Assembly (NCBI GenBank): GCA_963575745.1
Contig: CAUYUJ010000207.1
Location: 1-64,000, forward strand
Direction: 5' to 3'
Origin: Prorocentrum cordatum
Lineage: Eukaryota
Length of the DNA: 64,000 nt
The notes beneath the pieces were generated by a model. The model saw nothing but the letters and a program-made list of their open reading frames with translations. It had not been told where the DNA came from and did no database searches. Position 1 is the stretch's first letter. Each line of letters begins with the position of its first letter. This document shows positions 1,204 through 62,477 of the stretch, piece by piece. The position numbers were made by a program, and so were the translations under genes.

Positions 1204-2782
1204 CGGAGGTTGACGGTTTACCGCCGGCGCCCACTTCAAAATTATGTTCTCAAAATTTGAACATTCGTTCGAGCTCTAGTATTTTTTCCCGTGATATTCG
1301 ATCTTATTCCCGCTCGCCATCTTGATCTCAGCTCGATCGGGTGAATATTACTCTCGAAAAGCACTGTGGCGGGATCGGCCGTTTCGAGTCATCTTGATAC
1401 GCGCTGTCGGTATATTGGACTCAACTCGAGATACAGGACAGCTTGAGAGCTGATAAGCACACCTTATCGATTCAGAATGATCAGGCGCGTTCGTCTGTCG
1501 CATCCAGAGATCTGAAATCGGTCTGCTAGCTGAGCTAGGTCCGCAAACCTGTTCGTATTATTCGAGTCATCTTGACAGACGTTGTCGGCTTTGTGTACTT
1601 ACTCGAGCTGTAGCACAGCTACAGACTTACAGAAACCGATTCAGGATCATCGGTCGCGTTTGTCTGTTAATTCAGAGCTCTGAACTTGGTCTGCTGCCCG
1701 AGCTAGGTCGCAAACTTTTCGTCATCTTGAGAGGTGCTGTCGGTTTTCTGCACTTAACTAGGGCTGTAGGGGGGCTACAGGGCTCATAGCCACAGGAATC
1801 GATTCAGAGACATCAGGCGCGTTCGCTTGTCGCATTTAGAGGTCTGAACTCGGTCTGCTACTCGAGCTAGGTTCGCGAAACTATTCGTATTGGTCGAGTC
1901 ATCTTGGGAGGTGCTGTCGGTTTTCTGCACTTAACTCGGTCTGTAGGGGGGCTGCAGGGGGCATAATCACAGGAAACGATTCGGACATCAGGCGCGTCCG
2001 CCTGTTGCATTCAGAGGTCTGAACTCGGTTTGCTACTCGAGCTAGGTTCGCAAACCCATTCGTATTGTTCGAGTTATCTTGACAGGTGCTGTCAGTTTTC
2101 GCACGTAACTCGGGCTGTAGGAGAGCTACACAGCTGATGCGCACAGAAACTGATTCGAAATCATTTTGCGCGCTCGTCTGTTGCATCCAGAGGTCTGAAC
2201 CGGGTTTGCCTCTCGGACTAGCTCCGCAAAACTATTCGCATTCTTCAAGTTACCTTGGCAGATTTCGCCCCTCTTCTGCATTGACCTCGGGCTGTAAGAG
2301 CTACGAGCTGGTACGCACACAAAACGATCCAGAAGTATGAGAGGCGTTCGGCTGTTGCATCGAGAGGTCTGAAATCGCTGGGGCTGAACAACTATTCGTT
2401 CTCTACAACTTTTTTAACAGTATGCATGATCAGGAAGCTCTACGAGTCCCCCGGCGGTAACAAAGGTTGCTCAAGGCGTGGTTGCTCAAGGCGTGGTTGC
2501 TCAGCGCAGCCGACAGGGGTTTTAAACTCTGCCTGGACCTCGCCTCCAGTTTAGAGCCCCTACGCCAGCAAAGTTCTGTTTCGCTTACGTTACGAGGGCA
2601 TGCACGCATCAAGCCCCTTGGGGAGTGGGCTTCATAGCTTCCCTCTCGCCAGTTTTCAATCAGCTGAATCTTGTTGTGCACTCAGGACGCGTTACAGATA
2701 GCAGATTCGACTTGGTTGTGGCAATTTCTTCAGTTGTACTTGTACTTTGTCTCCTTGCCTCGTTCTCTTTCACATTGCAGTT

Positions 2783-3955
2783 ATGGAGGAAATGACAAAA
2801 GAAGAGGAGTTGGATATCGAAGGAATGGGAGGGGATGATCTTCAGAGCAAGATCCGTGGGGGTATACCGCCAGGTCTCTTGGACGCAGCTGCGGGAGCAG
2901 CAGGTGGACTTTTGGAGGAAGAAAAGGATGCTAAACGTCGTCGTCAGAGTGAGTTGGCACGGCAGCAGCGTGAGCAGGCATTGATTCAACAACAACAACA
3001 GCAGCTCAATCCTCAGTTGGCTGCACTCTCGCAGCTGCTCGACTCGAAGTTTGCCACGCAAAAGGAGAATTTCCAGTCTATTATGCAAGGTGAAGTTGCG
3101 CCGATCAAATTGAAGTTGGAAGAACACAGTACCGATTTGCAACGCCTCAATGCACAGGTGCAGTCACAGTAGAGACAGTTAGAAACCCTCCAAAGTAAAA
3201 CGAATGCCGATGCCTCAACAGTTGCTTCATCACGTGGGACTGGGTCGGGGAATCCTGGCTTCCAGTTCCAGGGTACTCGTGGGGAGTTTGGCTTCAAGGG
3301 TCCGAGGCCAACATTTCAACCAACGATGATAACTATAAAAGGATGGGCACGCACAGCGTCAGAAGAGCTTCATAAACGATCCAAGGCTTTACTCCCTGGA
3401 GCGGTGGCCCAGCGCCTCCTTGCGACTCTATTTCAGAAAGCGAATTGTTTGGCGCACGTGGATGAGATAAAAACGAACGATGAGAACAGTAAGAACCCCA
3501 TGGGATGTTATCAGCCCAAGATATGCTTCAAAGCCACGGCGACGAAGGATATGATGTGGGATTTTGGCAAAGTGTTCATTCAATGTTTCGAGCAGAAAGC
3601 CATCTTTGAGGATCCACACGGCGCGACCACGTATAACCACATCTGTGATGAAAGGATCACGGTCACTGTGGAGGCCTCTCCGTGGCAAGAACCGCACATC
3701 AAAGCTGCTGGCAAATTCAAGGCCCTATTTTATAAGCATCGTTCGTGTGCCAGCGCCTTTGTAAAGGTTGAGAAATATGGACCCCCAGCCACGTTTCTTT
3801 GGGCTTACCCGTCCGAGCAGCAGCTGCAAAAGGGACAGTGTGTTGCCTCATGGAAGCCTGATCGTGCAGTGGGTTGGAAGATTGATGAGGATATGATCAA
3901 GGAAGTCGATCCAAACTTCAAACTGGGGGATTTCAAAGCTGATCTCATGAGTTGA
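2783..3955 (+). pseudogene. LINE ORF1 (coiled-coil, Q-rich N-terminus) with premature stop
   Basis: Same protein as 10710-11882, but TAG at 3170-3172 where copy 2 has CAG. Confidence 0.85.
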
Positions 3956-6900
3956 CGGTGCCCTGGCAAGTGGCACGAACAATTGGCTGAGGTTGATCGC
4001 TCAATTTTCAGCTGGAACGTTCGTTTGCTAGGGATTGCACAATGCCACGAGATTTTCGCCCAGGTCTTCAATTCAAGCAATGTGATTCTCCTTCAAGAGT
4101 GCCAGTTTGTCTCCGATCGTGTTGCTGAGGAACACGGTTGGAATCTTTGGCGCTCCTCTTGTGAGCGATCGTGCGTGGGCCTCCGTGGTGTTTGGAAGGA
4201 CGATGTCCAACGCGAGGCCAGAGGCGACCGTTGGGTTGCCGTTGTTTGCTCTAATGTCATCTTTCTCTCTCTTTACTTGCCGCATAAGTATTTGCATGGA
4301 AAGTCTCGTGAGCAGGTTTTGCGTACGCTTAGTGTATACCAAGAAGTGCTGAGGGATACAGCGCTCAATGTTGCCAGACTGAAAAAGCAGTTTCGAATTC
4401 AGGATGTTGTTTTAGGAACCGATGCTAGTGTGGAGGTTGAGCCTCAGGTTTTCCACATGTCTCAGGCTGTCTCGGGTCCTAGTGTTGTTGGTGTGCCTAT
4501 TGTCCCTCGTACGAGGGATGGCGGATTTCAGAGGCGATCTAAGGAGTTTGCTTTGGAACTCAGCGAGGCTCTTACTTCAACTATTGGCACCCTGGGCCTC
4601 CAGTTGGCCGACACTTTCAACCCTACGAGGCTCCCTACCTGGCGCTCTGCTAAATGGGCTCACTACAGGCACCTACCTCAAGAACAGCAGTACTCTCACG
4701 TCTATGACTACATAGGTGTACCTTCGTCTTGGGGAGCTCCTGAGGTCTCCGTCTTGTGGCCACAGCCGGGGGCAGCACATATGTCTGGGAGCTCGGCCTC
4801 GAGTTTTTGGAGTGATCATGGTCTGTTACACTTGCGTGTCCCTGCTCGTGTCTTGCCTCGTCGAGTTGAGCGTCCCAATCCTGTCCGCAACACACGTTGG
4901 CATGTTCAGTCTCATCGTGTACCTCTTTTGCGCTATGCGGTTGGTGCAGCCCTGGTGTCTGGCAACAGCCAGACAGAACAGACCGATTGGAGTGGACATA
5001 CGGGTCTCTCGCCCACGGAGCTAGGTGACATGATTCGACAGCCCTGTGAGGAAATCGGCGAGGTCCCCACCAAAGCAGACCTTGCCCCGAAAGTTTCTGA
5101 GCAGTATGTTGCCGCTCGGGAGGCCGCACTTGAGATGAGGAGGAAGAGAAATAAGGGTGAATGCACGGAGGAGGAGTTCAAGAAGGCGAGGAGGAGGTAT
5201 AGATATGAGAGGAGGAAGCATGGGAGGAATATCTTGGAGTATGAGTTCCGTCCAGGTCTACAGCATCGAACATACCTTAAGACGCTCAAAGTCGAGGGGG
5301 TGCTCACTTGGGACAAGTCTAAGTGGGAGAAGGCCCTCAGAGCGCACGGTCTGGCCATGTATACTGATGAACATGAGCGTGCACGCACAAACAGTAAGCT
5401 GGAGGAGATGAGGAAGAGGTTGCAGGAGGTGAATACGCAGGAGTACCAGCCTATCGATATCGGCCTGCTCATGCGTGCTAGGTCTCGTCTTCGTTCAGGA
5501 AAGGCCGTAGGTAAGGACAACATCAGCGTCTCCATGCTTAAGCACATCCCTTGGTCAGGTTGTCTTCAAGTCTTGCGGTGCTTTCAGCAGCTGTTTATGC
5601 GCGAGTATTGCACACCCACAGAATGGTGCCATATATGTATACAGCTGATGCCGAAGTCTGTGAAGACTTGCGAATTCAATGACACACGAGCTTTATCATT
5701 ATTATCTTGCCTGTCAAAATGGTATATGTCATGTCTCACCTTGTTGGCCGTGGACCATCTCAAACGGAGTGTTGCCCCCGAGGTCATGCTCTTCGGGTTT
5801 GTTGCTGGAAGACGGACACACGATATTACTGGTGGTTTGAAGAGAGTTGCTCAGCACGCGACAGAATGGGGGAAGTCATATTGTATGCACATGGCGAGCT
5901 TAGACGTGTATCGTGCTTTTGATAACGTACAGGTGGCAGACGTTGCTGACTGCCTGGAGGAGTTGAGGTTTCCACCTGAACTTAGTTATGCGCTCATGGA
6001 GGGCCTAGCTGAGAACAGGGCCGATTTATCTTTCCAGCAGGTGGATGTCTCGGACATAGCTTGGGATAGTTGTAACCGCACAGGTAGTGTTGAGGCTCCG
6101 CTCTTTTAGCTATGTGAGAGTGTGCTCATGTTCCGTTCTGTTGTCTTGAGTTGGCAGGAGCGGGGGATGGGTGTGCAGTTGACGCAGCAGGCAGGTACTC
6201 GTCATCTTACACATGCTATTTGGGCCGACAATGTTCTGTTGTGTGCCAGGGATCAGGGTGAGTTGACGACCATGATTGCGGAGATCAGTGTCCCACTTTA
6301 TCACAGGAAGTACAGATGGAAACCGAGTAGCTTGCAGTTTATTCGCTTTGGCTATGATGAGCCTGGGATCGAGAGTTTGGATGTCTCTTTTGCGTTGCCG
6401 ACTTCCCAGGATAAGCGTCAGAGAGTGACTATAACGTTGCAGCAGACAGATCGTTTGGAAATACTTGGCACGATTCTTGAAAACAGTATGCGACAACATG
6501 AGGACTTAAATCATCGGATTTCTCTCGCACAAAAGGCGTTTTGGCAAGATAAGAAGTATTACATGTGCCACGGTATTAAGTTGAAGAAAAGATTGCGGCG
6601 ATATGACTCACGTGTAAGAAGCCGATTCTTGTTTGCAGTGGAAGGGATGACAGCTGACAAAAATGCTATTGAATCGATTCATGCGTTTGAAGGCCGCTTA
6701 CTGTCGAAGATGGTATGGAGACGGAAACGTGACACTGAGAGTTGGCCACAGTTTTTCCAGAGCGTGTACTTGACGGGGCGGAAAGCACTCAGGACAGCTC
6801 AGATGCCGAGTGCGGTCCAGCTCTTTCTTTTCAAACAGTGGAGTTGGGCAAAGGATGTGGCGACGACAACTGCTCAAAACGGGATCCGCCAAGTTGATGA

Positions 6901-8326
6901 CGCCCAGCCTACAATTGATCCAATGGAAATGGATGGTGCAGTGTCTCTTCATATGGATGGGATGTCTCAGAATGCGGGTGCTACTGTACCGATTACCACG
7001 GATTTGATGTCTCAGAATGCGGGTGCGAGTGTACCGATTACCACGGGTTCGATGTCTTTGAATGCGGGTGCTGCTGTACCGAGCACCGGAGATCTGAAAC
7101 GACGGAGAGTGACTGTTATTGTGGCCCCTGTCCTTACTGCCCGAGGGGACCTCACTGTTGCTCTGCCTGAGGGTCTGGAGAACAGCGCCACGAGTCAGAA
7201 CCGACGACGGCTTATCTCTCAGGCGTCCCGTGCTGCTGCCAAAAGGAGCAGGAATGCTCCCACATCATCAACGCCATCATCATCATCAGCCCCTACACCA
7301 GCGCCAGCTGCCATGCGAAGAAGGTTTCGAAGTGATATGGTGGGGGCGAGTGCGGATGACCCTTTCTTGCAGGCCCGTTACACGATGATGCATGCCGCCA
7401 GCCCGTGGACTCAGCAGATGGATGCCGTTATTCGCACATATAACTCGCAGGAAGCACGATCCTTTACACGTCGAAGGGAAGGTGGAAAAACAGTGGGACT
7501 TCGTCCGTGGGGCTTGCCTTTTGAAACGGTGGGTGGAGATGCTTGGTATGATACTCTTGAGTGGACTCAGGCAGGGTGGAGATGTTTTATCCGTACGTTG
7601 CTTTCGGAATGGGACCTACAACATGTTTTAGAATATGCTCACCTGCCTGAACCAAAACCCTGGAGGCAGAAAAACGACGAGGAGGAGGTGGAGGGGACGG
7701 AGGAGAGAAATAATGAGATTGCAAAGCGGCTCGCCTATAACTTCGAGAATGCCAGCGTCTGGAACTACGAGGCTGAAGGGGTTCCCGTCGAGCTCTGTGG
7801 TGACTCCCAGGTGGTAGTGAACTGGCTGGTGGGACAATATGTATGTACGACGGAAGTGTATTGTGAGACCATTGCACACATTCAAAGTATATTATACAGA
7901 CTACACTTGAACTACCGCGTGAATCTGAGGCCGCCGTCTTGGGGTTTAGATCCTTGGAAGTGGTTTTATCGTGAGGGAAATGAGCGTGCTGATGCTGAAA
8001 CTTGGAAGGCCCGCGCGGGCCAGAACCATCGTACTTTCGACCCGTACATTCATACTCTCAGAAGGGAACAAATAAAGGGGATTCGCGGCTACTTCGATGG
8101 TGGTCGGTCCTCCCACGGTGTTGGCATTGGTTGGGTCATTGACTTATTCGTGCTCCCCCTCCCTGCTCTTCAACACTCTCAAGGCTCTTGGCTATTCAAC
8201 ATAGCCTCCGAGGCTGCCGCCATCCCGCCGACCTGCACGGTTAGTCAAGCTGAGCTCTTGGCCAGCAAGCGCCTCGCTGAAGGTGTCGAGCACCTGCTGC
8301 TCCTCTGCTGCGGACCTGAATCCTGA
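3956..8326 (+). pseudogene. LINE ORF2 (APE endonuclease, RT, permuted RNase H) with premature stop
   Basis: Motifs SWNV, LLQE, SDH, LDVYRAFD and WADN (6221-6232). TAG at 6107-6109 where copy 2 has TGG. APE DAN changed to DAS. Net 72 bp shorter than copy 2 near 5430. Confidence 0.9.
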
Positions 8327-8765
8327 GCGGGGGCTCCCCTGTCCCTGTGGGCTCCGAGCAAAGCAAAAACAAAGGTTGACGGTTTACCGCTGGCGCCCAG
8401 TTTTGGACGCTACAAAGTGGACGCTACTAAGTGGTCAGTTGAAAATTCCTCGTAGAGCTCTTCGTCATCCCTCGTAGAGCTCTTTGACATCGATGAGCTA
8501 GAGGAACTCTGGCGCGGGATTGAGCTAGTACCTCGTAGAGCTCTTCGGCATCGAAGAGCTAGAGGAATTCCGGCGAGGGGCGGAGCTAGTTGGCCCACCC
8601 GGCTGGGGCGGACAAATTGGTGACTTTTGGTTGGTTTTGCGAAAATTTGAAAGATATTCAACAATGTATTTTTCCTGGAGAGCTCTCTGAGAGCTAGAAG
8701 GTTTTAGATTAGAAGCCGGACGGTGGTGGTGTCTGCCAGCAGCCCATCTTCGCCGCTCCAGAATC

Positions 8766-8886: not shown

Positions 8887-10709
8887 AGGGGAGCCCCCAG
8901 AGCTCCAGAAGCGCTTCACGAGAGCGTCCGAGGGCCCCCAGGAAAGCTTTCCGGCGTGTATTCGAGCTCTAGTTTTCCCACCATATTCGATCTAATTCCC
9001 GCTCGCCATCTTGATCTCAGCTCGATCGGGTGAATATTTCATCAAAAAAGCGTCGCGGCGGGATCGGCTGTTTCGAGTCATCTTGATACGCGTTGTCGGC
9101 ATTTTGTTCTTAACTCGAGCTGTAGGGCAGCTACAGAGCTCATTATCACAGACATCGATTGCGAATCATCAGGCGCGTTCGTCTGTCCCATCCAGAGGTC
9201 TGATCTCGGTAACTCGTAGAGCTTCCCTTAGCAAGTTATTGCTGGAAGCTTCAGAGTAATTCTGGGGCGCTGGAGAGCTAGTTGGCAAGAAAAATCTCGA
9301 CGGACCTTTTGGTGACTTTCGGTCGGTTGAAAATTTTGTTTTCGAAATTCCCTAATTCGTTTGAGCTCTAGTATTTTTTCCCCTGATATTCGATCAAATT
9401 CCCGCTCGCCATCTTGATCTCAGCTCGATCGGGTAGCTTTTACTGCCAAAAAGCACACTGGCGGGATCGGCCGTTTCGAGTCATCTTGTCACGCGCTGTC
9501 GGTTTTCTCAAGATAACTCGAGCTTCAGGACAGCTACAGAGCTGGTGAGCACAGCTAATCGATTCAGAATGATCAGGCGCGTTCGCCTGTTGAAGCCAGA
9601 GGTCTGAACTCGGTCTGCTAGCCGAGCTAGGTCCGCAAACCTATTCGTATTATTCGAGTCATCTTGACAGACACTCTCGGTTTTCTGTACTTAACTCGAG
9701 CTAAAGGACAGCTACAGAGCTGATACGTACAGAAATCTGATTCAGAATGATCAGTGGCCGTTGTCTGTTGAATCCAGAGCTCTGAACTCGGTCTGCTGCC
9801 CGATCTAGAATCGCGAAACTATTCGTATTGTTCGAGTCATCTTGAGAGATGCTGTCGGTTCTCTGCACTTAACTCGGGCTGTAGGGGGGCTGCATGGCTG
9901 GTAATCATTGGAATCGATTCGGAGACATCAGGCGCGTCCGCGTGTCGAATCCAGAGCTCCGAACTCTGTCTGCTGCCCGAACTAGGTCCGCGAAGCTATT
10001 CGTATTGTTCGAGTCATCCTGAGAGGTGCTGTGGGTTTCCTGCACTTAGCTCGGGCTGTAGGGGGGGCTGCAGGGCTGGTAATCACAGGAATCGATTCAG
10101 AGACATCAGACGCGTATGCAGAGGTCTGAACTCGGTCTGATACTCGAGCTAGGTTTGCCCAACTATTCGTATTGTTCGACTCATCTTGAGAGGTGCTGTC
10201 GATTTACGCACGTAACTCGGGCTGTAGGAGAGCTACAGAGCTCGTACAGAAGACAATCCAGAAGCATCGGGGGCGTTCGGCTGTTGCATCCGAGAGGTCT
10301 GAAATTGCCTGGGCTGAAAAAATATTTTTGCTGTGTAATTTTTTTCGACATTACATGTTGTCAGGAAGTCTACGAGTCCCCCGGCGGTAACAAAGGTTGC
10401 TCAAGGCGTGGTTGCTCATCGCATCCGACAGGGGTTTTAAACTCTGCCTGGACCTCGCCTCCAGTTTAGAGCCCCTACGCCAGCAAAGCTTTTGTTTCGC
10501 TTACGTTACAAGGCACACACGCAGTCAAGCGCTGACTCCGTGACAGGCATCACGGTGCCCGATCTTTGCACTCTCGCCAGTTTTCAATCAGCTGAATCCT
10601 GTTGTGCACTCAGGACGCGTTACAGATAGCAGATTCATCTTGGTTGTGGCAATTTCTTCCGTTGCACTTGTACTTTGTCTCTTTGCCTCGTTCTCTTTCA
10701 CATTGCAGT

Positions 10710-11882
10710 ATGGAGGAAATGACAAAAGAAGAGGAGTTGGACATCGAAGGTATGGGAGGGGATGATCTTCATAGCAAGATCCGTGGGGGTATACCGCCAG
10801 GTCTCTTGGATGCAGCAGCGGGGGCAGCAGGTGGACTTCTGGAGGAAGAAAAGGATACCAAACGTCGTCGTCAGAGTGAGTTGGCACGGCGGCAGCGTGA
10901 GCAGGCATTGATTCAACAACAACAACAGCAGCTGAATCCTCAGCTGGCGGCACTCTCGCAGTTGCTCGATTCGAAGTTTGCCACACAAAAGGAGAATTTC
11001 CAGTCTATCATGCAGGGTGAAGTTGCGCCGATCAAACTGAAGTTGGAAGAGCATAGTACCGATTTGCAACGTCTGAATGCACAGGTGCAGTCACAGCAGA
11101 GACAGTTAGAAGCCCTCCAGAGTAAAACCAATGCCGATGCATCAACAGTTGCTTCATCCCGTGGGACTGGGTCGGGGAATCCAGGCTTCCAGTTCCAGGG
11201 TACTCGTGGTGAGTTTGGTCTCAAGGGTCCGAGGCCAACCTTCCAACCAACGATGATAACTATAAAAGGATGGGCACGCACAGCGTCGGAAGAACTTCAT
11301 AAACGATCCAAGGCCTTACTCCCTGGTGCGGTTGCCCAGCGCCTCCTGGCGACTCTATTTCAAAAAGCGAATTGCTTGGCGCACGTGGATGAGATAAAAA
11401 CGAATGATGAGAACAGTAAGAACCCCATGGGATGTTATCAGCTCAAGATATGCTTCAAAGCCACGGCGACGAAGGATAGGATGTGGGATTTTCGCAAAGT
11501 GTTCATTCAATGTTTCGAGCAGAAAGCCATCTTTGAGGACCCACACGATGCGACCACGTATAATCACATCTGTGATGAAAGGATCACGGTTACGGTGGAG
11601 GCCTCTCCATGGCAAGAACCGCACATCAAAGCTGCTGGCAAATTCAAGGCCCTATTTTATAAGCATCGTTCGTGTGCCAGCGCCTTTGTAAAGGTGGAAA
11701 AATATGGACCCCCAGCCACGTTTCTGTGGGCTTACCCGTCCGAGCAGCAGCTGCAAAAGGGACAGTGTGTTGCCTCGTGGAAGCCTGATCGTGCAGTGGG
11801 TTGGAAGATTGATGAGGATATGATCAAGGAAGTCGATCCAAACTTCAATCTGGGGGATTTCAAAGCTGATCTCATGAGTTGA
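10710..11882 (+). CDS. LINE ORF1 protein, 390 aa (coiled coil plus conserved C-terminal domain)
   Basis: ATG at 10710 follows a pyrimidine tract ending GCAG. Motifs FQPTMITIKGW, VEASPW..PH and GPP are shared with the ORF1s at 28701, 41495 and 47290. Confidence 0.85.
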   Translation: MEEMTKEEELDIEGMGGDDLHSKIRGGIPPGLLDAAAGAAGGLLEEEKDTKRRRQSELARRQREQALIQQQQQQLNPQLAALSQLLDSKFATQKENFQSIMQGEVAPIKLKLEEHSTDLQRLNAQVQSQQRQLEALQSKTNADASTVASSRGTGSGNPGFQFQGTRGEFGLKGPRPTFQPTMITIKGWARTASEELHKRSKALLPGAVAQRLLATLFQKANCLAHVDEIKTNDENSKNPMGCYQLKICFKATATKDRMWDFRKVFIQCFEQKAIFEDPHDATTYNHICDERITVTVEASPWQEPHIKAAGKFKALFYKHRSCASAFVKVEKYGPPATFLWAYPSEQQLQKGQCVASWKPDRAVGWKIDEDMIKEVDPNFNLGDFKADLMS

Positions 11883-14800
11883 CGGTGCCCTGGCAAGTGG
11901 CACGAACAATTGGCTGAGGTTGATCGCTCAATTTTCAGCTGGAACGTTCGTTTGCTAGGGATTGCACAATGCCACGAGATTTGCGCCCAGGTTTTCAATT
12001 CAAGCACTGTGATTCTCCTTCAAGAATGCCAGTTTGTCTCCGACCGTGTTGCTGAGGAACACGGTTGGAATCTTTGGCGCTCCTCTTGTGAGCGAGCTTG
12101 CGTGGGCCTCAGAGGTGTTTGGAAGGATGATGTCCAACACGAGGCCAGAGGCGACCGTTGGGTTGCCGTTGTTTGCTCTAATGCCATCTTTCTCTCTCTC
12201 TACTTGCCTCATAAGTATTTGCATGGAAAGTCTCGTGAGCAGTTTTTGCGTACGCTTAGTGTATACCAGGAAGTGCTGAGGGATGCAGCGCTCAATGTTG
12301 CCAGATTAAAAAAGCAGTTTCGAATTCAGGATGTTGTTTTAGGAACTGATGCTAACGTTGAGGTTGAGCCTCAGGTTTTCCACATGTCTCAGGCTGTCTC
12401 GGGTTCTAGTGTTGTTGGTGTGCCCATTGTCCCTCGTACGAGGGATGGCGGATTTCAGAGGCGATCTAAGGAGTTTGCCTTGGAACTCAGTGAGGCTCTT
12501 ACTTTCACTATGGGCACCCTGGGCCTCCAGTTGGCCAACACCTTCAACCCTACGAGGCTCCCTACCTGGCGCTCTGCTAAATGGGCTCACTACAGGCACC
12601 TACCTCGAGAACAGCAGTACTCTCATGTCTACGACTACATAGGTGTACCATCGTCTTGGGGAGCTCCTGAGGTCTCCGTCTTGTGGCCACAGCCGGGGGC
12701 AGCACATATGTCTGGGAGCTCGGCCTCGAGCTTTTGGAGTGATCATGGTCTGCTACACTTGCGTATCCCTGCTCGTGTCTTGCCTCGTCGAGTTGTGCGT
12801 CCCGATCCTGTCCGCAACACACGTTGGCACGTTCAGTCTCATCGTGTACCTATTTTGCGCTATGCAGTTGATGCAGCCCTGGTGTCTGGCAACAGCCGGA
12901 CAGATCAGACCGATTGGAGTGGACACACGGGTCTCTCGCCCACGGAGCTAGGTGACAAGATCCGACAGCCTTGTGAGGAAATCGGCGGGGTCCCCACCAA
13001 AGCCGACCTTACCCCGAAAGTTTCTGAGCAGTATGTTGCCGCTCGGGAGGCTGCACTTGAGATGAGGAGGAAGAGAAATAAGGGTGAATGCACGGAGGAG
13101 GAGTTCAAGAAGGCGAGGAGGAGGTACAGATATGAGAGGAGGAAGCATGGGAGGAATATCTTGGAGTATGAGTTCCGTCCAGGCCTACAGCATCGGACAT
13201 ACCTTAAGACGCTCAAGGTTGAGGGAGTGCACACTTGGGACAAGTCTAAGTGGGAGATGGCCCTCAGAGCGCACGGTTTGGCCATGTACACTGATGAACA
13301 TGAGCGTGCACGCACAAACAGTAAGCTGGAGGAGATGAGGAAGAGGTTGCAGGAGGCTTCAGGCAAAATAAGAGCAGAGGAGAAAATTGAAGCACAGGTT
13401 GAGACAAGATGGCCGGCGCGCCTGACAAGACCTCTGCGCGAATACCAGCCTATCGATATCGGCCTGCTCATGCGTGCTAGGTCTCGTCTTCGTTCAGGAA
13501 AGGCCGTAGGTAAGGACAACATCAGCGTCTCCATGCTTAAGCACATCCCTTGGTCAGGTTGTCTTCAAGTCTTGCGGTGCTTTCAGCAGCTGTTTATGCG
13601 CGAGTATTGCACACCCACAGAATGGCGCCATATATGTATACAGCTGATGCCGAAGTCTGTGAAGACTTGCGAATTCAATGACACACGAGCTTTGTCATTA
13701 TTATCTTGCCTGTCAAAATGGTATATGTCATGTCTCACCTTGTTGGCCGTGGACCATCTCAAACGGAGTGTTGCCCTCGAGGTCATGCTCTTCGGGTTTG
13801 TTGCTGGAAGACGGACACACGAGATTACTGGTGGTTTGAAGAGAGTTGCTCAGCACGCGACGGAATGGGGGAAGTCATATTGTGTGCACATGGCGAGCTT
13901 AGACGTGTATCGTGCTTTTGATAACGTACAGGTGGCCGACGTTGCTGACTGCCTGGAGGAGTTGAGGTTCCCACCTGAACTTAGTTATGCGCTCGTGGAG
14001 GGCCTAGCTGAGAACAGGGCCGATTTATCCTTCCAGCAGGTGGACGTATCGGACATAGCTTGGGATAGTTGTATCCGCACAGGTAGTGTTGAGGCTCCGC
14101 TCTTTTGGCTGTGTGAGAGTGTGCTCATGTTCCGTCCTGTGGTATTGAGTTGGCAGGAGCGGGGGATGGGAGTGCAGTTGACGCAGCAGGCAGGGACTCG
14201 TCATCTTACACATGCGATTTGGGCCGACAATGTTCTGTTGTGTGCCAGAGATCAGAGCGAGTTGACGACCATGATTGCGGAGATCAGTGTCCCACTTTAT
14301 CACAGAAAGTACAGATGGAAACCGAGTAGCTTGCAGTTTATTCGCTTTGGCTATGATGAGCCTGGGATTGAGAGTTTGGATGTCTCCTTTGCGTTGCCGA
14401 ATTCCCTGGACAAGCGTCAGAGAGTGACTATAACGTTGCAGCGGACAGATCGTTTGGAAATACTTGGCACGATTCTTGAAAACAGCATGCGACAACATGA
14501 GGACTTAAATCATCGGATTTCTCTCGCTCAAAAGGCGTTTTGGCAAGATAAGAGGTATTACATGTGCCAGGGTATTAAGTTGAAGAAAAGATTGCGGCGA
14601 TATGACTCACGTGTAAGAAGCCGATTATTGTTTGCAGTGGAAGGGATGACAGCTGACAAAAATGCGATTGAATCAATTCATGCGTTTGAAGGCCGCTTAC
14701 TTTCGAAGATGGTGTGGAGACGGAAACGTGACACTGAGAGTTGGCCACAGTTTTTTCAGAGCGTGTACTTGACGGGGCGGAAAGCACTCAGGACAGCTCA

Positions 14801-16325
14801 GATGCCGAGTGCAGTTCAGCTCTTTCTTTTCAAACAGTGGAGTTGGGCAAAGGATGTGGCGACGACAACTGCTCAAAACGGGATCCGCCGAGTTGATGAC
14901 GCCCAGCCTACAATTGATCCAATGGAAATGGGTGGTGCAGTGTCTCTTGATATGGATGGGATGTCTCAGGATGCGGGTGCTACTGTACCGATTACCACGG
15001 ACTTGATGTCTCAGAATGCGGGTGCGGTCGTACCGATTACCACGGGTTCGAGGTCTTTGAATGCGGGTGCTGCTGTACCGATTATCGGAGATCTGAAACG
15101 ACGGAGGGTGACTATTATTGTGGCCCCTGTCCTTACTGCCCGGGGGGACCTCACCGTTGCTCTGCCAGAGGGTCAGGAGAACAGCGCCACGACTCAGAAC
15201 CGACGACGGCTTATCTCTCAGGCGTCCCGTGCTGCTGCCAAAAGGAGCAGGAATGCTCCCACATCATCAACGCCATCATCATCATCTGCCCCTACACCTG
15301 CGCCAGCAGCCATACGAAGAAGGTTTCGAAGTGATATGGTTGGGGTGAGTACGGACGACCCTTTCTTGCAGGCTCGTTACACGATGATGCATGCCGCCAG
15401 CCCGTGGACACAGCAGATGGATGCCGTTATTCGCACATATAATTCGCAGGAAGCACGATCCTTTACACGTCGAAGGGAAGGTGGGAAAACGGTGGGACTT
15501 CGTCCGTGGGGCTTGCCATTCGAGACGGTGGGTGGAGATGCTTGGTATGATACTCTTGAGTGGACTCAGGCAGGGTGGAGATGTTTTATCCGTACGTTGC
15601 TTTCGGAATGGGACCTACAACATGTTTTAGTGTATGCTCACCTGCCTGAACCAAAACCCTGGAGGCCGAAAAACGACGAGGAGGAGGCGGAGGGGACGGA
15701 GGAGAGAAATAATGAGATTGCAAAGCGGCTCGCCTTTAACTTCGAGAATGCCAGCGTCTGGAACTATGAGGCTGAAGGGATTCCCGTCGAGCTCTGTGGT
15801 GACTCGCAGGTGGTGGTGAACTGGCTGGTGGGACAATATGTATGTACGACGGAAGTGTATTGTGAGACCATTGCGCACATTCAGAGTATATTATACAGAT
15901 TACACTTGAACTACCGCGTGAACCTGAGGCCGCCGTCTTGGGGTTTAGATCCTTGGAAGTGGTTTTATCGTGAGGGAAACGAGCGTGCTGATGCTGAAAC
16001 TTGGAAGGCCCGCACGGGCCAGAACCATCGTACTTTCGACCCGTGCATTCATACTCTCAGAAGGGAACAAATAAAGGGGATTCGCGGCTACTTCGATGGT
16101 GGTCGTTCCTCCCACGGTGTTGGCATTGGTTGGGTTATTGACTTATTCGTGCTCCCCCTCCCTGCTCTTCAACACTCTCAAGGCTCTTGGCTATTCAGTA
16201 TAGCCTCGGAGGCTGCCGCCATCCCGCCGACCTGCACGGTTAGTCAAGCTGAGCTCTTGGCCAGCAAGCGCCTCGCTGAAGGTGTTGAGCACCTGCTGCT
16301 CCTCTGCTGCGGACCTGAATCCTGA
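11883..16325 (+). CDS. LINE ORF2 polyprotein: APE endonuclease, reverse transcriptase (WADN), circularly permuted RNase H
   Basis: Open frame of about 1480 codons. APE motifs: SWNV, LQE, YLP, DAN, DY, SDH. RT motifs: GKAVGKD, LMPK..RALSLL, FGF, LDVYRAFD, IRTG, WADN. RNase H motifs in the order GDS, REGNERAD, FDGG, AE. Confidence 0.93.
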   Translation, partial: RCPGKWHEQLAEVDRSIFSWNVRLLGIAQCHEICAQVFNSSTVILLQECQFVSDRVAEEHGWNLWRSSCERACVGLRGVWKDDVQHEARGDRWVAVVCSNAIFLSLYLPHKYLHGKSREQFLRTLSVYQEVLRDAALNVARLKKQFRIQDVVLGTDANVEVEPQVFHMSQAVSGSSVVGVPIVPRTRDGGFQRRSKEFALELSEALTFTMGTLGLQLANTFNPTRLPTWRSAKWAHYRHLPREQQYSHVYDYIGVPSSWGAPEVSVLWPQPGAAHMSGSSASSFWSDHGLLHLRIPARVLPRRVVRPDPVRNTRWHVQSHRVPILRYAVDAALVSGNSRTDQTDWSGHTGLSPTELGDKIRQPCEEIGGVPTKADLTPKVSEQYVAAREAALEMRRKRNKGECTEEEFKKARRRYRYERRKHGRNILEYEFRPGLQHRTYLKTLKVEGVHTWDKSKWEMALRAHGLAMYTDEHERARTNSKLEEMRKRLQEASGKIRAEEKIEAQVETRWPARLTRPLREYQPIDIGLLMRARSRLRSGKAVGKDNISVSMLKHIPWSGCLQVLRCFQQLFMREYCTPTEWRHICIQLMPKSVKTCEFNDTRALSLLSCLSKWYMSCLTLLAVDHLKRSVALEVMLFGFVAGRRTHEITGGLKRVAQHATEWGKSYCVHMASLDVYRAFDNVQVADVADCLEELRFPPELSYALVEGLAENRADLSFQQVDVSDIAWDSCIRTGSVEAPLFWLCESVLMFRPVVLSWQERGMGVQLTQQAGTRHLTHAIWADNVLLCARDQSELTTMIAEISVPLYHRKYRWKPSSLQFIRFGYDEPGIESLDVSFALPNSLDKRQRVTITLQRTDRLEILGTILENSMRQHEDLNHRISLAQKAFWQDKRYYMCQGIKLKKRLRRYDSRVRSRLLFAVEGMTADKNAIESIHAFEGRLLSKMVWRRKRDTESWPQFFQSVYLTGRKALRTAQMPSAVQLFLFKQWSWAKDVATTTAQNGIRRVDDAQPTIDPMEMGGAVSLDMDGMSQDAGATVPITTDLMSQNAGAVVPITTGSRSLNAGAAVPIIGDLKRRRVTIIVAPVLTARGDLTVALPEGQENSATTQNRRRLISQASRAAAKRSRNAPTSSTPSSSSAPTPAPAAIRRRFRSDMVGVSTDDPFLQARYTMMHAASPWTQQMDAVIRTYNSQEARSFTRRREGGKTVGLRPWGLPFETVGGDAWYDTLEWTQAGWRCFIRTLLSEWDLQHVLVYAHLPEPKPWRPKNDEEEAEGTEERNNEIAKRLAFNFENASVWNYEAEGIPVELCGDSQVVVNWLVGQYVCTTEVYCETIAHIQSILYRLHLNYRVNLRPPSWGLDPWKWFYREGNERADAETWKARTGQNHRTFDPCIHTLRREQIKGIRGYFDGGRSSHGVGIGWVIDLFVLPLPALQHSQGSWLFSIASEAAAIPPTCTVSQAELLASKRLAEGVEHLLLLCCGPES

Positions 16326-17500
16326 GCGGGGGCTCCTCTGTCCCTGTGGGCTCCGAGCAAAGCAAAAACAAAGGTTGACGGTTTACCGCCGGCGCCCAGT
16401 CTGCTGCCCGAGCTATGTACGCGAAACTATCTGTGTTGTTCGAGTCATTTTGAGAGGTGCTGTCAGCTTTCTGCACCTAACTCGGGCTCTAGGGGGGCCA
16501 CAAGGGTTCGTACTCACAGGGATCGATTCAGAGACATCAGGCGCGTCTGTCTGCCAAATCGAGGGCCCGAGCTCGGCCTGATATTCGCGAGACTATTTGT
16601 ATTGTTCGAGTGATCTTGAGAGATGCTGTCGATTTTCGCTCGTAACTCGGGCTGGAGCAGAGCTACGGAGCAGAAGCATGAAGGGCGTGCGGCTGTTGCA
16701 TCGAGAGGTCTCAAATCGCTTAGGCTGAAAAACTGTTCTTTCTTTGTAATTTTTTTCGACATTAAATGTGATGAGGAAGCTCTACGAGTCTCCCGGCGGT
16801 AAGAAAGGTTGACGGTTTACCGCCGGCGCCCAGTGGTGACTTTGGGTCGGTTTTGATCAGATTTGAAAGATATTCGACAGTTGCTTTTGAGAAAGCAGAT
16901 TTTTACGTCGAGCATTGGCATATAAACTTCGTTGCCGGCGCCAGTAATTCCGGCGCGGTGGAGAGCTAGTTGGGAAGAAAAAACTCGACGGATTTTTTGC
17001 TGACTTTTGGTCGGTTGAAAATTTTGTTCTCGAAATTCAACAATTCGTTTCAGCTCCAGTATTTTTTTCGAACATATTCGACCTTATTCCCGCTCGCCTT
17101 CTCATTCTCAGCTCGATCGGGTAAATATCTCTGCCAAAAAGCATCGCGGCGGGATCGGCTGTTTCGAGTCATCTTGATACGCGTTGTCAGTATTTTGTAC
17201 TCAACTCGAGCTGTAGGGCAGCTACAGAGCATCGATTGCGAATCATCAGGCGCGTTCGTCTGTTCCATCTAGAGGTCTGAACTCGGTCTGCTGCCCGAGC
17301 TAGAATCGCGAAACTATTCGTGTTGTTCGAGTCATCTTGAGAGGTGCTGTCAGTTTCCTGCACTTAACTCAGGCTGTAGGGCGGCTACAGGGCTGGTAAT
17401 CACAGGAATCGATTCAGAGACATCAGGCGTGTCCGTCTGCCGAACCCAGAGCTCAGAACTCGGTGTGCTGCTCGAGCTAGATCCACAAAACTATGCGTAT

Positions 17501-26853: not shown

Positions 26854-26866
26854 TTGGCAAGAAAAA

Positions 26867-40400: not shown

Positions 40401-41494
40401 AAAAAGCACTGCGGCGGGATCGGCCGTTCCGGTCATCTTGACACGCGGTAGCGGTTTTTTGTACTTAACTCGAGCTATAGGACAGCTGCAGATCTGATAC
40501 TTACAGAAACCGATTCACAATGATGCGGCGCATTTGTCTGTTGAATCCAGAGGTCTGAACTCGGTCTACTGCTCGAGCTAGGTCCGCGAAACTATTCGTA
40601 TTGTTCGAGTCATCTTGAGAGGTGCTGTCGGTATTCTGCACTTAACTCGTGCTGTAGGGGGGCTACAGGGCTGGTACTCACAGAAAACGATTCAGAGACA
40701 TCAGGCGCGTCCGCCTGTCGCATGCAGAGGTCTGAACTTGGTCTGATACTCGAGCCAGGTCCGCAAAACCATCCGTATCGCTCGAGTCAACTAAACGGGG
40801 ACTGTCGGTTTTCTGTACTGACCTCGAGCTCTAGGGGAGCTACAGAACTCATATGCACAGAAACCAATGCAGAATATTCAGGCGCGTTCGTCTGTTGCAT
40901 TCAGAGGTCTGAACTCGATCTGCTACTCGAGCTAGGTTCGCGAAACTGTTCGTATTGTTCGAGTCATCTTGAGAGGTGCTGTCGATTTCCGCACGTAACT
41001 CGGGCTGTAGAAGAGCTACAGAGCTGATGCGCACAGAAACTGATTCGGAATCATCGTGCGCGTTCGTCTGTTGCATTCAGAGGTCTGAACTGGGTTTGCT
41101 ACTCGGGCTAGGTCCGCAAGCCTATTTGTATTCTTCTGTCCATTTTCTGTATTGAAGTCGGGCTGTAGGAGAGCTACAGAGCTGGTGCGCACAGACACCG
41201 ATCCAGGAGCATTAGGAGCGTTCGTCTTTTGCATCGAGAGGTCTGAACTCGGTCTGCAACTACTGCTGAAAACTATTGTTTGAAAACTATTGCTGATAAC
41301 TTGCAGAAAACTATTGCTGAAAACTGCTGATTCTTTGGACAGAATGAATGGTCAGGAAGCTCTACGAGCCCCCCGGCTCAAGAAGGCGTGTCGGCTCAAG
41401 GTCACGGAGCCGCTGACTTTGTCCTGCCTGGGCTACCTCCGCCAAGGCCAGCGGTAGTGATCAGCAGAGCCTGAGGAGCATATCGTAATTCTTC

Positions 41495-42898
41495 GTGCAA
41501 GTATTTGGGACCACGTCGTACGACACACCCGAGTCGAGACAAGCTTTGTTGGAAGCAATTGGATTGGGGCGTTGGAACGAAACAGTTGCTCAGTGGCATC
41601 AGAATACAAGTCAAGATCTTGACTGCCCATTGACACCTCGAGAGGACCGTGTGGATCATTTCGACTACTTGGATCAATTTGAACCTTGGGACGCCGCTGA
41701 TTTAAGATCCTTGGAGCGTGCATCAGGGAAACGACAGCGTGAAGACGACAAAGCATTTCTAAACAAGTGGGGTATTCCATCACAGATTTCAGAAGCAATA
41801 ATGTTGGGTGCATCCTCTTCGGTTGATGCAAATATGAACGCTGCTGTGGACACAAATAAAGAAAACAAGAGACCGAGGAATGGAGGTGATATTCAAAAAC
41901 AACGTGAGGAGATGATGAAAACTGCCACCACTGGGTTTGAGCGGTTCGTCATGGACCATTTCTTCAAAGCAGAGGATAGTAAGGAGGAGATTTTACAGAC
42001 CATTCAGAACACGAACAATCATATCAAAGCCGTGGAGAGTACATTGCAGAAGCACGATGACAGAGCTAATAAGATGGAGGAGAGGATGAATAAATTTGAA
42101 GAGGCCCTGCGTCAAGTACATAATGGAAGTGGTGCTGGATCAGATGTTTCTCGTACTACGGCTGGTGGAGGTATTGGAGGCGGCGGGCCGCCTGGCTTAT
42201 CTCCCAGCTCGCGTTTCCAGGATTTCAGACCGACATACATTGAGTTGAAGGGGTGGGTGACGAATTGGTCAGATCATGGCGCGCGGGCGTAGCAACTCCT
42301 AACGTGGAGTGATTGCCAAAAACTTATCGACAATTGCTTGGAACGATGCAATCAACTCGAGAAGGATGCAGTAGATCGTGAAACAACTGAGCGTATCAAT
42401 TCGGGCAGGTATATGTTTGGCAGTGTCAAGATCAGTTTCAAACCCAATACGAGTAGGGACCTGCTCTGGACGATTAAAAAGAAGTGGGATGCAATCATTA
42501 AGAATACTGTTGATGGGCACAATGGTCTGCCCTTACCTGCAGTCTTGACTGAGGGCCTTGTGATTCAGTTCCCAGGATCAAATTTACGTGTCCAAATCGA
42601 GTGCGCACCCTGGAAAAGGGATCACGTTAAAGCTGTGGCGAGGTTTTGCGGAGCGTTCAGAACGATGACGCAACAGCACGCCCAGATCGAAGTGAGAGGA
42701 GAAATTGGACCACCGCGATCGTTGATATGGACCGTCGCCAAGGGTGCTTTGCGTCCCATCAATATTGCCACATTCACTTCAGCTCGTAATACTTGGGAGG
42801 TGCACGAGCCGCAGTGGCAGCAGGTTGTCAGCGCATTTCCTGCGGTGGCGGCTGTCACTAAGCAGATGTTAGAGAGTGAGGTCAACAGACGCCAATGA
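41495..42898 (+). pseudogene. LINE ORF1 with one premature stop
   Basis: ORFs 41495-42292 and 42338-42898 are in the same frame, split by TAG at 42290-42292. Contains a coiled coil and FRPTYIELKGWVTNW. Confidence 0.8.
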
Positions 42899-45800
42899 CA
42901 AAAACGATATTGGAGCAAGGGACTTCGTATCGGAACATGGAATGTAGGTAATTCGGGTGTTTCCAACTCACGTGGGACCGAGGTTCTAACATCTCTGAGG
43001 AAGATAGGAGCCTCTTCAATTTTCGGTTTGCAAGAGTGTGAGTTCTTTGACTCAGCTGAATTAGATAGACTCGGTTGGCATTTTAAACCTTCCAGGGATA
43101 GACGTGCAGGCTTGTTGTATGCCCATGGGTGGGCCCAACTCCTGCGCGAATGTGTCACAGACTGCGATAGATTTGTCTTGGGTGTGTTTGGAACGGAGGC
43201 GTCTCAGGTGATCATATGTTCGGCTTATTTTCCACATCATGATCGTGATCAGTGTGATCTTGAATCGGCGGAAATGCTGGGGGAGTTGGAGGGTCAGATC
43301 CGTCTCTTGAAGCAGAAATATCGTCAGGCCAGCTTTTGTTTGCTTGCGGATGCCAATGTTGAGTTGCCACCACTTGTTCAGCTTGAGGTTGCAGGTCAGG
43401 GTTATGCTGCCACTGGGACAGGTACGAAATCATGGAGGAGGACGGGATCTGAGGGGAAGGCGGAGAGGGAGAGGAAGGATAGGAGGCAGATATTGACGGA
43501 TAACTTGCTGACCTTTATGCAGACTTGGGGTTTGTTAGCTGCCAACACCTTCGACCGTCGTCGCCCGACCTGGGAGCCCTGGGGACAAGAGCGAAATCGT
43601 TCTCGGACTAGATCGATGAGGAGAGTCTTAGACTATGTGATGGTTCCGATGGGGTGGGAGGTGCAGGAGTGTAAGATCGATTTCAAGTATCGCAGCGGAG
43701 GAACTCATAATCGTAGTAGACTTGCTGATCATGCTCTAGTTATGTGCACAGTACGACAGTCCAGTCCTGGCAGGACTGATTGGACAGTCGAGCGTGTGCA
43801 TAGGGAACCTTCTTTGGTGGGATGGCGGGCTCAGACGTATGCGGACGAGATGATAGGGAGGGAAAGGGTTGACCTCGAGTTTTGCGGTGCCGTGTTTGCT
43901 GGATGTGGTTCCCCTCCAGCTGCGTCGACACGACCACAGGACGTGACAGAGACCGCTCCTGTCATTTTGAAAGCATTTACGCAGGAGGATGTGGATTACT
44001 CCACGGCCTCAGCTGCCCGGCCTCCAGCGCCTACTCGCCCGCCCGAGCTCACACGTCTCGAAGAGCGGATTCGGTCCCTTCAGAATGGTCCAGAGAAAAA
44101 GAGACTCAGAGCAGCTGCCAATGTTTGGAGGAGACAGTATCGGCGTGATCTTCTTGAATGGGCTGTACCCCCGACTCGTCGTAAGATTCGACATCGTATC
44201 AAACATGTGGTGGTTGATGGATGGGAGACGGAGGATAGATATATCTTGAAGGAGAAGTTGGAGGAGCATGTTAAGGGGAAGGTGACATCACAGCGTAGGA
44301 GGGAGGAGAACAGCAACTTGATGGAGGAAATCAGGAGGAAGGCGGAGGTGGAGATCAAGGGTGGCCAGATCATTCGAAGTATTACGATGTCGATATGTTG
44401 TGCAGCGAGGACTCGTCTTCGAACGCGACGGGCAACAGGACCGGATCGCGTACCTTGTGAAATGCTCAAGCTTCTCCCATGGTGCACAGTTCGGCACATC
44501 CAACAGATCTTCGACTCTCTTTTGAGGCTGGTTGTCCAGTATCCTGTTCGATGGAGGGACATTCTCATTGCATACATGCCTAAACTAAAGGGGATCACGA
44601 ACTTGGCGGATGCTCGACTCTTGTGCTTACAGAATAGCATAACTCGCTGGTTCTCGGCGTGCGTAGTTATCCTGGTGGAGCAGCATGTGGAAGAGTCTAA
44701 GCTATTTCATCCTCTGGGCCTCTATGGGTTCCGTCAGGGTCACAGCACATCCCATATCACGAGTAGCCTTACTAACATGTGTATGCACGGGGACAAGTGG
44801 GGGAAGCGTGAGTGTCTGTACGTTGCGGACATGGACATATACCAGGCCTTTGACAACTGCACGATACAGAACGTTCATAAGGGTCTTGAGCATGCACGTG
44901 TCCCTGCGTATTTACAGCACGCGTTTCTGGATCCGTTATCGCACAGCACGGGCTGCCTCTACTATGACGGGTTGGAGATTGATAACATCCAGTGGGACAC
45001 CTGTATTAGGACTGGAGGCCCAGAAGGGCCCTTGGGCTTTAACCTCATTATTGCTGCCATGTGGGGTGACGTTATTCACAATTGGGACGTTCAGGGCATG
45101 GGGTATGCGGTAGATTTCGGTACGGAGCATCGGTCGGTGGTGAATCATTTTATCTGGGCAGATAACGTGTACCTCGTCAGTCGCAGCCGTGAGGAGCTTA
45201 CTCGTATGGTAAGAGACTTGACACTTCCACTTTACAACTTCTCGATGCGATGGAAACCCACATCGCTGAAGTACATGGTGTGCGGAGCTCCTGCTGTCTT
45301 GGATGAGGACGGGAATATCCCGCGTTCGATGGATCTTAAAATACCGATCTTCTCAGATGCATGTGACGGGAGGAATGCAGTGCAGCAGATTGATGAGTTA
45401 TGTTACCGTCGAGTTGTTTCTATGGACGTACTGGGCACGCAGCTGCATAGTGAATATAACTGTTCTGTACATCGTGATGTTTCTTTTCGCCTAGACTGTG
45501 CTCGTCGCGCATTTTACTCTCAGGCAGGGTATTTCAGGTCGCACTGTATTCCTCTCAAGGATAAGCTGCGGAGATACCAGGACAGAGTCCAGAGCCTGGC
45601 TCTGTATGGTATGGAGACCACCACTGCAGATTCTTATACTCTCTCGTTTCTCCATTCCTTCGAAGGGAAATGCCTGAAGATGATGATCTCTTCTCGAAAA
45701 GGCCCGACGGAAACGGAGCAAGCTTATCAGCAGAGGAGATATCATGTCGCACGGGAACGTTTCTTGAAGGCTGGGTACTCCTCTCTTGTCCAGCGTTATC

Positions 45801-62357: not shown

Positions 62358-62477
62358 AACCTGGTTGACGGTTTACCGCCAACTCCCAGTTTCCCCTCCC
62401 CGACGGTCTCTTCGCTCTCCGGGTCTTGGAGGCTACCAAGTGGACGCTACCAATGGACGCTACCCAGTGTACACCTG

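Follow-up and report, generated by a model that had tools for sequence, protein, structure and literature searches.

Here, we analyze a stretch of 64,000 nucleotides from Prorocentrum cordatum contig CAUYUJ010000207.1 (the window) and identify it as a head-to-tail field of non-long terminal repeat (non-LTR) retrotransposons of the long interspersed nuclear element (LINE) type, in which a first open reading frame (ORF1) is followed by ORF2. In all six LINE-like copies in these 64 kb, the reverse transcriptase (RT) encoded by ORF2 has an Asn in place of the second Asp of motif C, and in all copies a Thr takes the place of the Gln of the QG pair in motif B. We consider it very likely that these elements, which are LINEs of the apurinic/apyrimidinic endonuclease (APE) type, encode a selected and working RT with a catalytic center of two aspartates plus an asparagine. 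The three-Asp center is taken as the signature of a working RT, and an enzyme that has lost it is considered dead by annotation pipelines and reviewers alike. An old, multi-copy retrotransposon lineage that relies on an Asp-Asn (DN) enzyme would provide a natural test of the role of the third carboxylate.

Motifs A, B, and C of the window reverse transcriptases

The sequence-only reading of the window had reported WADN at five positions and WAEN at a sixth, and all six are confirmed, each in a long ORF on the + strand. In a six-frame, stop-to-stop scan, WADN lies at 6221, 14220, 45155, 50980, and 59972 in ORFs of 738, 1480, 1329, 1078, and 1080 aa, respectively, and WAEN at 31839 within an ORF of 869 aa. 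Chance matches were found in short ORFs, i.e., WADN at 3518 (- strand, 64-aa ORF) and WAEN at 19918 (74-aa ORF). The pattern [YFW][AVILMC]DD is absent from all six frames of the 64-kb window.

In the full-length element of family A (copy 2, + strand), motif C reads WADN (TGG GCC GAC AAT; 14220..14231) where F/YxDD is usual and aligns to FADD of human L1 ORF2p. Motif B reads IRTGSVEAP (14073..14099; 14073-14084 is ATC CGC ACA GGT, i.e., IRTG), with Thr at the position of the Gln of QG, and aligns to TRQGCPLSP of L1 ORF2p. Motif A reads DVYRAFD (13902..13922; catalytic Asp D674, and D680) and aligns to SIDAEKAFD. The motif B pattern previously described, IRTG(G/S)x(E/D)(G/A)P, holds in five ORF2s and can be extended to (C/S)IRTG(G/S)x(E/D)(G/A)P; in family A copy 1, the motif reads NRTG followed by a TAG stop. 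Motif A is normal, as had been stated, and follows (L/M/A)D(V/I)xxAFD in all five ORF2s. Across the five aligned ORF2s, which are only 29-34% identical to that of family A, W780, A781, N783, I731-G734, D674, D680, and a Pro five residues past IRTG are invariant. Because these motifs sit at homologous positions despite such low identity, they are not chance matches.

The codons behind the invariant residues have turned over. Across families, AAT and AAC occur for the Asn, GAC and GAT for the preceding Asp, and ACA, ACT, and ACG for the RTG threonine. The residue that follows the Asn is Val, Leu, or Cys, and the decayed relative of family B has a Glu at the first motif C Asp. When contigs of sequencing runs were compared over 14199-14249, those of runs X1, X2, and X3 covered this segment and that of X9 did not; in the contigs of the three covering runs, the listings show no alternative base at the codons of WADN and RTG.

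The assignment of these motifs rests on the RT domain as a whole, which comprises fingers, palm, and thumb and extends over approximately 13440..14882 (+ strand). Pfam RVT_1 matches family A with 29.7 bits against a cut-off of 29.6 and the other families with 34.6-47.1 bits, and a search of the PDB with the single sequence gave no RT match. A profile of 54 sequences matched human L1 ORF2p (8c8j, 8sxt, and 8uw3) with E values of 9e-42 to 1e-41 and R2 with about 1e-39; the scores of L1 and R2 structures are thus about the same. In its alignment to L1 ORF2p, the profile sets 'liWADNiyll' on 'SLFADDMIVY', 'GgrQGGvetP' on 'GTRQGCPLSP', and 'slDvkkAFD' on 'SIDAEKAFD'. An AlphaFold2 (AF2) model built from the 54-relative alignment (predicted local distance difference test score [pLDDT] 90.9; predicted template modeling score [pTM] 0.88) places WADN in the turn of a beta-hairpin between strands 277-280 and 283-288, as for motif C, and the top Foldseek matches of this model are the reverse-transcription complexes of R2 and L1 ORF2p (E 2e-17 to 7e-16). 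We therefore assign WADN to motif C and IRTG to motif B.

Spread, phylogeny, and selection of the Asp-Asn state

An exhaustive HMMER search gave 1984 relatives of the RT at E <= 1e-3. Word-indexed homologue searches gave 3, 3, and 12 matches, and one of them, being confined to proteins of 2548-5000 residues, was of little use. Motifs were counted in the best 150 of the 1984 relatives plus 3 earlier matches, among which 122 stretches cover motif C and 129 cover motif B. Motif C is of the xxDN type in 87 of the 122 stretches (WADN 72, WSDN 6, WVDN 4, FADN 4, and YADN 1) and of the xxDD type in 32 (WADD 22, FADD 7, WMDD 2, and FLDD 1); the other three have neither.

For the phylogeny, we used the 70 rows in which at least 330 of the 450 RT columns and both motifs are covered, 93 of 163 proteins being excluded as too short or partial. 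Both trait regions were removed beforehand, and the tree, obtained in a quick search under LG+G4, was rooted on sequences of the FADD/QGDPLSP type. In this tree, the WADD rows form a grade and the DN rows large clades. The four families of the window fall in a starred clade of 9 rows, all of which are RTG and DN, and this clade is nested in a starred 20-row clade that is entirely DN; every near relative of the window families on the tree is DN. Paths between clade members exceed one change per site. The DN state requires 5 changes on the tree, compared to a mean of 21 after shuffling. The sequence-only reading had argued from conservation across four families. On the one hand, the state is more widespread than that; on the other hand, the four families belong to a single RTG subclade and do not count as four independent witnesses.

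Selection on the protein is evident from the two copies of family A, for which the ratio of nonsynonymous to synonymous divergence (dN/dS) lies between 0.14 and 0.19 and thus indicates purifying selection. At a dS of about 0.10, the endonuclease block gave 0.19, the part from the RT onward to the end 0.16, and the RT core 0.136. These low values imply that most of the divergence within family A arose in lineages that needed the protein. Over much longer distances, the RT core has also been kept: among the 70 rows of the alignment, K91 is present in 62, R102 in 68, D174 in 70, D180 in 64, G234 in 70, D282 in 69, L361 in 68, and G362 in 70. On this comparative evidence, WADN is the ancestral and selected state of a large, deep clade and not a product of decay.

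The change in motif B is nested within the Asp-Asn clade

Of the 129 stretches covering motif B, 29 have Thr at the position of the QG glutamine, 52 read RQG, and 28 read KQG; most DN relatives retain QG. Among the 29 Thr stretches, 24 have a DN-type motif C, 1 has WAGN, and 4 do not reach motif C; by contrast, Thr occurs in 0 of the 32 xxDD stretches. The Q/T state requires about eight changes on the tree. The counts and the tree suggest that DN is the earlier change and Q to T the later one, which apparently occurred repeatedly and has been observed solely in sequences devoid of the second motif C Asp, with the reservation that these counts are inflated by relatedness. The two changes had been presented as a pair; both are real, but their ranges differ, DN being a hallmark of the clade and Thr a nested state.

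A model for the Asp-Asn enzyme and its alternatives

Given the conservation, purifying selection, and synonymous codon turnover, the best reading is an enzyme that is active and has an altered catalytic site, as the sequence-only reading had proposed. The further possibility raised there, that metal use, fidelity, or priming may differ, is speculative. In the model that we favor, the WADN enzyme would carry out ordinary target-primed reverse transcription with the Asp of motif A and the first Asp of motif C making up a two-metal site. In place of the third carboxylate, the amide of the Asn would act as a ligand of lower strength or engage in hydrogen bonding, and the Gln-to-Thr change would have followed in subclades already devoid of the second motif C Asp. 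The Gln of QG (Q151 in HIV-1 RT) contacts the sugar of the incoming nucleotide. With DN and RTG combined, the nucleotide pocket of the window families is therefore changed at two positions.

Several considerations weigh against this model. Loss of the second Asp abolishes activity in mutants of HIV-1 RT and of other RTs, and activity of the window enzymes therefore presumes a compensating context. We sought a compensating DN-specific carboxylate over the 70-row alignment, but the palm yielded none. Acidic residues are enriched in DN rows at a single column, 436, in a thumb helix (about residue 936 of family A ORF2, close to 14688), which is acidic in 98% of the DN rows, 50% of the WADD rows, and 11% of the outgroup. 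The acidic residue of motif B (G-x-E/D) is common in DN rows but not confined to them, as roughly half of the WADD rows have it; this covariation is not clean. The support for activity is comparative in nature, and the absence of YxDD LINEs is established for the 64-kb window and not for the whole genome. Moreover, the quick LG+G4 search means that single stars on the tree need caution, as does the exclusion of 93 of the 163 proteins, and the dN/dS values come from one pair of copies. Finally, both family A copies sit behind a repeat unit at the equal position, and duplication at the DNA level could yield this arrangement. However, duplication followed by neutral divergence would give a dN/dS near 1, unlike the values observed.

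The inactivity of second-Asp mutants in well-studied RTs is also an argument for an alternative in which the WADN enzymes are catalytically dead and a YxDD RT encoded elsewhere in the genome copies the elements in trans. WADD and FADD relatives do turn up in the same protein searches, and the short non-coding units of the window show that trans-mobilization takes place in this system. However, a dN/dS of 0.136 in the RT core is too low for a dead domain, and K91, R102, D174, D282, and G362 have been kept across 70 deeply diverged rows. The Asn itself has been held through synonymous codon turnover and is found in 87 of 122 relatives, and no frame of the 64-kb field encodes YxDD. We regard this alternative as very unlikely. 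Purifying selection alone does not reveal which activity is selected, and polymerase-inactive RT-like folds exist, with Prp8 being among the distant Foldseek matches of our model. Accordingly, the RT fold could have been retained for RNA binding or as a ribonucleoprotein scaffold, with a host polymerase making the cDNA. Such a role would not explain the complete or almost complete conservation of the triphosphate-binding Lys and Arg, of both remaining Asp residues, and of the Leu-Gly in motif E, nor why the endonuclease and RNase H-like partners have been retained, which is sensible only around the element's own cDNA synthesis. We consider a scaffold role very unlikely.

Even less weight is due to a scenario in which the Asp is restored after transcription or translation, either by adenosine-to-inosine editing of AAY, which would then be read as GAY, or by deamidation of the Asn, and in which the working enzyme is WADD. 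Editing would have to change no more than the A that begins AAT or AAC; yet all six window copies have A at that base, and no other letter is listed at 14229 in the three covering runs. The RNA of a LINE serves as mRNA and also as the template for new copies, which would therefore carry G if that RNA had been edited. Deamidation is favored by a following Gly, and here the following residue is Val, Leu, or Cys. Lastly, that WADN is not motif C, with the true YxDD elsewhere or the alignment in error, is suggested by the marginal Pfam RVT_1 match and the failed single-sequence PDB search but has a negligible chance of being correct given a profile alignment (E 1e-41) that sets WADN on FADD, a modeled hairpin after motif B, and the absence of YxDD from all six frames of the window. 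Altogether, a functional DN enzyme accounts best for the data.

Organization of the window and its element copies

The window has a G+C content of ~51% and a GC skew that is positive nearly throughout. It is filled with repeats, all on the + strand, and arrays of ~1.15-kb non-coding units separate the LINE copies. Copy 2 of family A (10400..16400, + strand) is a full-length LINE with 5' untranslated region, ORF1, ORF2, and 3' tail, and both ORFs are open. Its 5' boundary was set where identity to copy 1 rises, at about 10395-10400, and its 3' boundary at the point at which the two copies diverge (16400 vs 8401). Copy 1 (2470..8401, +; WADN at 6221-6232) is slightly decayed, with TAG stops at 3170 and 6107 and a gap of ~72 bp relative to copy 2. 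Family B (41489..46888, +) has an ORF1 with an internal TAG at 42290, a TGA at 42896, and an open ORF2 (42899-46888) with WADN at 45155-45166. Its decayed relative (28692 to about 33785, +) has WAEN at 31839-31850 and a C-terminal domain that is frameshifted (32569-33558). Family C (47152 to about 52959, +) consists of ORF1 (47152-48672, ending in TAG) and ORF2 (48673-51909; WADN at 50980-50991), with its RNase H-like part in another frame at 51875-52852. Family D (59039..62390, +; WADN at 59972-59983) is 5'-truncated and has no endonuclease.

The ORFs had been described as intact. This is correct for family A copy 2, which is fully open, and for ORF2 of family B, which is uninterrupted; it does not apply to family A copy 1 and ORF1 of family B with their in-frame stops, to family C and the decayed family B relative with the C-terminal domain in another frame, or to family D.

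The contig word depth of the element in sequencing run X1 is 105-228, and the element sequence also occurs in marine and freshwater metagenomes; no RNA dataset is among those listed for it. There was no match to Rfam and no match to the dinoflagellate spliced-leader motif at <=3 mismatches, and the protein atlas returned solely generic RVT_1 clusters that were uninformative as to taxon.

ORF1, ORF2, and the endonuclease

ORF1 of family A (10710..11882, +) runs from the first ATG to the TGA at 11880-11882 and has a Gln-rich, coiled-coil-like middle. ORF2 (11883..16325, +; 1480 aa), which encodes the endonuclease, the RT, and an RNase H-like domain, follows directly after this TGA and in the same frame. 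In families A, B, and C, ORF1 lies upstream of and in frame with ORF2, and one stop lies between them (TGA at 11880-11882 in A, TGA at 42896-42898 in B, and TAG at 48670-48672 in C). The first Met of ORF2 is found only after the first endonuclease motifs. The shared frame, the single stop, and the late Met therefore make a readthrough fusion probable, and ORF2 is probably made either as an ORF1-ORF2 fusion by stop-codon readthrough or by non-AUG reinitiation. None of the ORF1s of families A, B, and C matches a Pfam family.

The N-terminal part of ORF2 is an APE-type (EEP) endonuclease domain (approximately 11928..12752, +). Pfam alone found no endonuclease domain in the window ORF2s. Profile A4 matched the L1 endonuclease L1-EN (1vyb) with an E value of 1.8e-10 and exonuclease III (3fzi) with 5.5e-11. 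In this domain, D156, D251, D287, and H288 are invariant, and Q47 and E48 are nearly so. Over both the endonuclease and the RT, a profile of full-length ORF2 is collinear with human L1 ORF2p (residues 6-707; E 9.3e-45). Based on this collinearity and the endonuclease matches, the elements are APE-type LINEs, with an RT, an EEP endonuclease, an upstream ORF1, and many copies.

A putatively permuted RNase H

The C-terminal part of ORF2 (15771..16322, +) is an RNase H-like domain, recognized by motif order and hidden Markov model (HMM), in which the two halves are swapped: GDS and N..AD come first, followed by FDGG and AEL. The same arrangement is present in family C, in the decayed family B relative, and at the C-termini of families B and D. 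The RNase H carboxylates D158, D221, D256, and E308 (numbering of alignment A3) are invariant in all six sequences, and profile A2 matched RNase H 4e19 with an E value of 4.3e-18. By pattern, 12 of the 18 relatives with both motifs have the swapped order, including one WADD member, and the HMM adds P0004 as the 13th. P0156, which has a precomputed match to the RNase H family PF00075, is matched by the domain HMM in two pieces in swapped order. A model of the domain reached a pLDDT of 70; with this model, VIA-align gave half-domain RNase H matches only (Z 3.6-3.7), and no RNase H was among the Foldseek matches listed. Judged by the order of its motifs, the RNase H appears to be circularly permuted.

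A shared 3' tail and tail-associated junctions

The LINEs end in a conserved 34-nt 3' tail without poly(A) (16367..16400 in family A copy 2, +), which is common to all LINE families and to the ~1.15-kb units. The other LINE tails are on the same strand at 8368-8401 (family A copy 1), about 52926-52959 (family C), 62358-62390 (family D, diverged), and about 33752-33785 (decayed family B relative); examples of tails at unit ends are 22065-22098, 24455-24488, 28349-28382, and 54177-54210 (all +). The core shared by the four LINE families, which have about 30% protein identity, and by the non-coding units is GGTTGACGGTTTACCGCC. That this core has been held in diverged families and units fits an enzyme that still recognizes and copies these RNAs. 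The tail is probably a recognition element of the RT, and the ~1.15-kb units are probably non-autonomous partners. These units form tandem head-to-tail arrays (18939-28359 and elsewhere) and contain internal sub-repeats of ~177 bp.

Clean target site duplications (TSDs) had been adduced in support of activity, and this claim is less secure than it was made out to be. The 10-11-nt direct repeats at the junctions (2459-2469/8368-8378, 10389-10399/16367-16377, and ~28680-28699/~33752, all +) coincide with the start of the element's own 3' tail, and their status as TSDs is therefore ambiguous. Both family A copies and the decayed family B relative begin directly behind the truncated tail of a unit, and the 10-11 nt before the junction are the LINE's own tail variant (AACAAAGGTTG or AACCAGGTTG) and not the AAGAAAGGTTG of the units. 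This pattern suggests insertion directed into resident tails rather than ordinary TSDs, and tail-directed insertion would explain the head-to-tail layout on one strand. The units that precede the two family A copies are about 85-89% identical, which is near the neutral divergence of the LINE bodies; the preceding unit might therefore move together with the LINE and represent a monomer-like 5' region.

Outside the window, the 18-nt core of the tail is present in at least 125 metagenome contigs, and an RT ORF was found in 1 of the 120 loci examined. In contig L073, a 764-aa EF-hand ORF (259-2550, - strand) ends about 208 nt upstream of the tail, and in contig L053 an uninterrupted Glu/Gln-tRNA synthetase ORF follows the tail. 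Both ORFs could be host genes that lie beside tails or retrocopies produced by this machinery. The matches to the tail core in L013 and L067 are in phage-like DNA and were set aside as probably chance or unrelated.

Taken together, these features allow a wider and tentative proposal, which we think is more doubtful than the DN enzyme itself: the elements could represent a new major lineage of marine-protist LINEs that combines a two-carboxylate-plus-Asn center, nested Gln loss, and a metal or nucleotide preference unlike that of any characterized RT with a permuted RNase H and with tail-directed integration that builds arrays with tail-sharing non-coding partners.

Comparison with known systems

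APE-type LINEs with an RNase H are known and include I, Tad1, LOA, ingi, and some plant L1 elements, in which the order is endonuclease, RT, and RNase H. The window elements have the same domain order and differ by the permuted RNase H motifs and the DN motif C. R2 elements have YADD as motif C. They carry a C-terminal restriction-like endonuclease, whereas the window elements have an N-terminal APE endonuclease; nevertheless, R2 proteins (9dou, 8gh6, and 9nl3) rank first or close to first among the fold and profile matches of the window RT. Human L1 ORF2p (8c8j, 8sxt, 8uw3, and 9hdo) resembles the window proteins in its collinear APE endonuclease and RT, its RT fold, motif A, the aromatic-Ala-Asp core of motif C, and an upstream ORF1. 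By contrast, human L1 has FADD, RQG, and poly(A), while the window elements have WADN, RTG, a 34-nt tail, a C-terminal RNase H-like domain, and one in-frame stop between the ORFs.

LINEs with ORF1 and an RT-bearing ORF2 that evolve under purifying selection have been described in marine protists, i.e., SymbioLINE of Symbiodinium (PMC5890265) and the environmental LINE clades LEC1-3 of Tara Oceans (PMC5029228). In SymbioLINE-Dnmt, ORF1 encodes a DNA (cytosine) methyltransferase (PMC5890265), whereas the window ORF1s have no Pfam match. The comparison with these elements is by description, and neither text mentions the catalytic motif (PMC5890265, PMC5029228). Our full-text literature searches, which left out subscription journals and Repbase reports, turned up no article in which WADN or an Asp-Asn motif C is named for a retrotransposon. 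RTs of this kind barely reach the Pfam threshold and are under-counted in marine protist genomes and metagenomes.

An Asp-Asn motif C is normal in another class of polymerases. The L polymerases of non-segmented negative-strand RNA viruses have GDN as their active motif C. They share the right-hand fold and the Asp-Asn pair with the window enzymes; however, they are RNA-dependent RNA polymerases without close relation to them and serve as a precedent only. Among RTs, the loss of the last Asp, described in the sequence-only reading as a change at a nearly invariant residue, is indeed rare but not unheard of. According to Simon and Zimmerly (2008), all RT groups studied except the bacterial G2L5 class have three aspartates (PMC2602772). 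Thus, G2L5 is likewise a natural RT without one of the three Asp residues (PMC2602772). The prokaryotic RTs are of bacterial or phage origin and are not retrotransposons, whereas the window RTs belong to multi-copy eukaryotic LINEs that rely on their RT for propagation.

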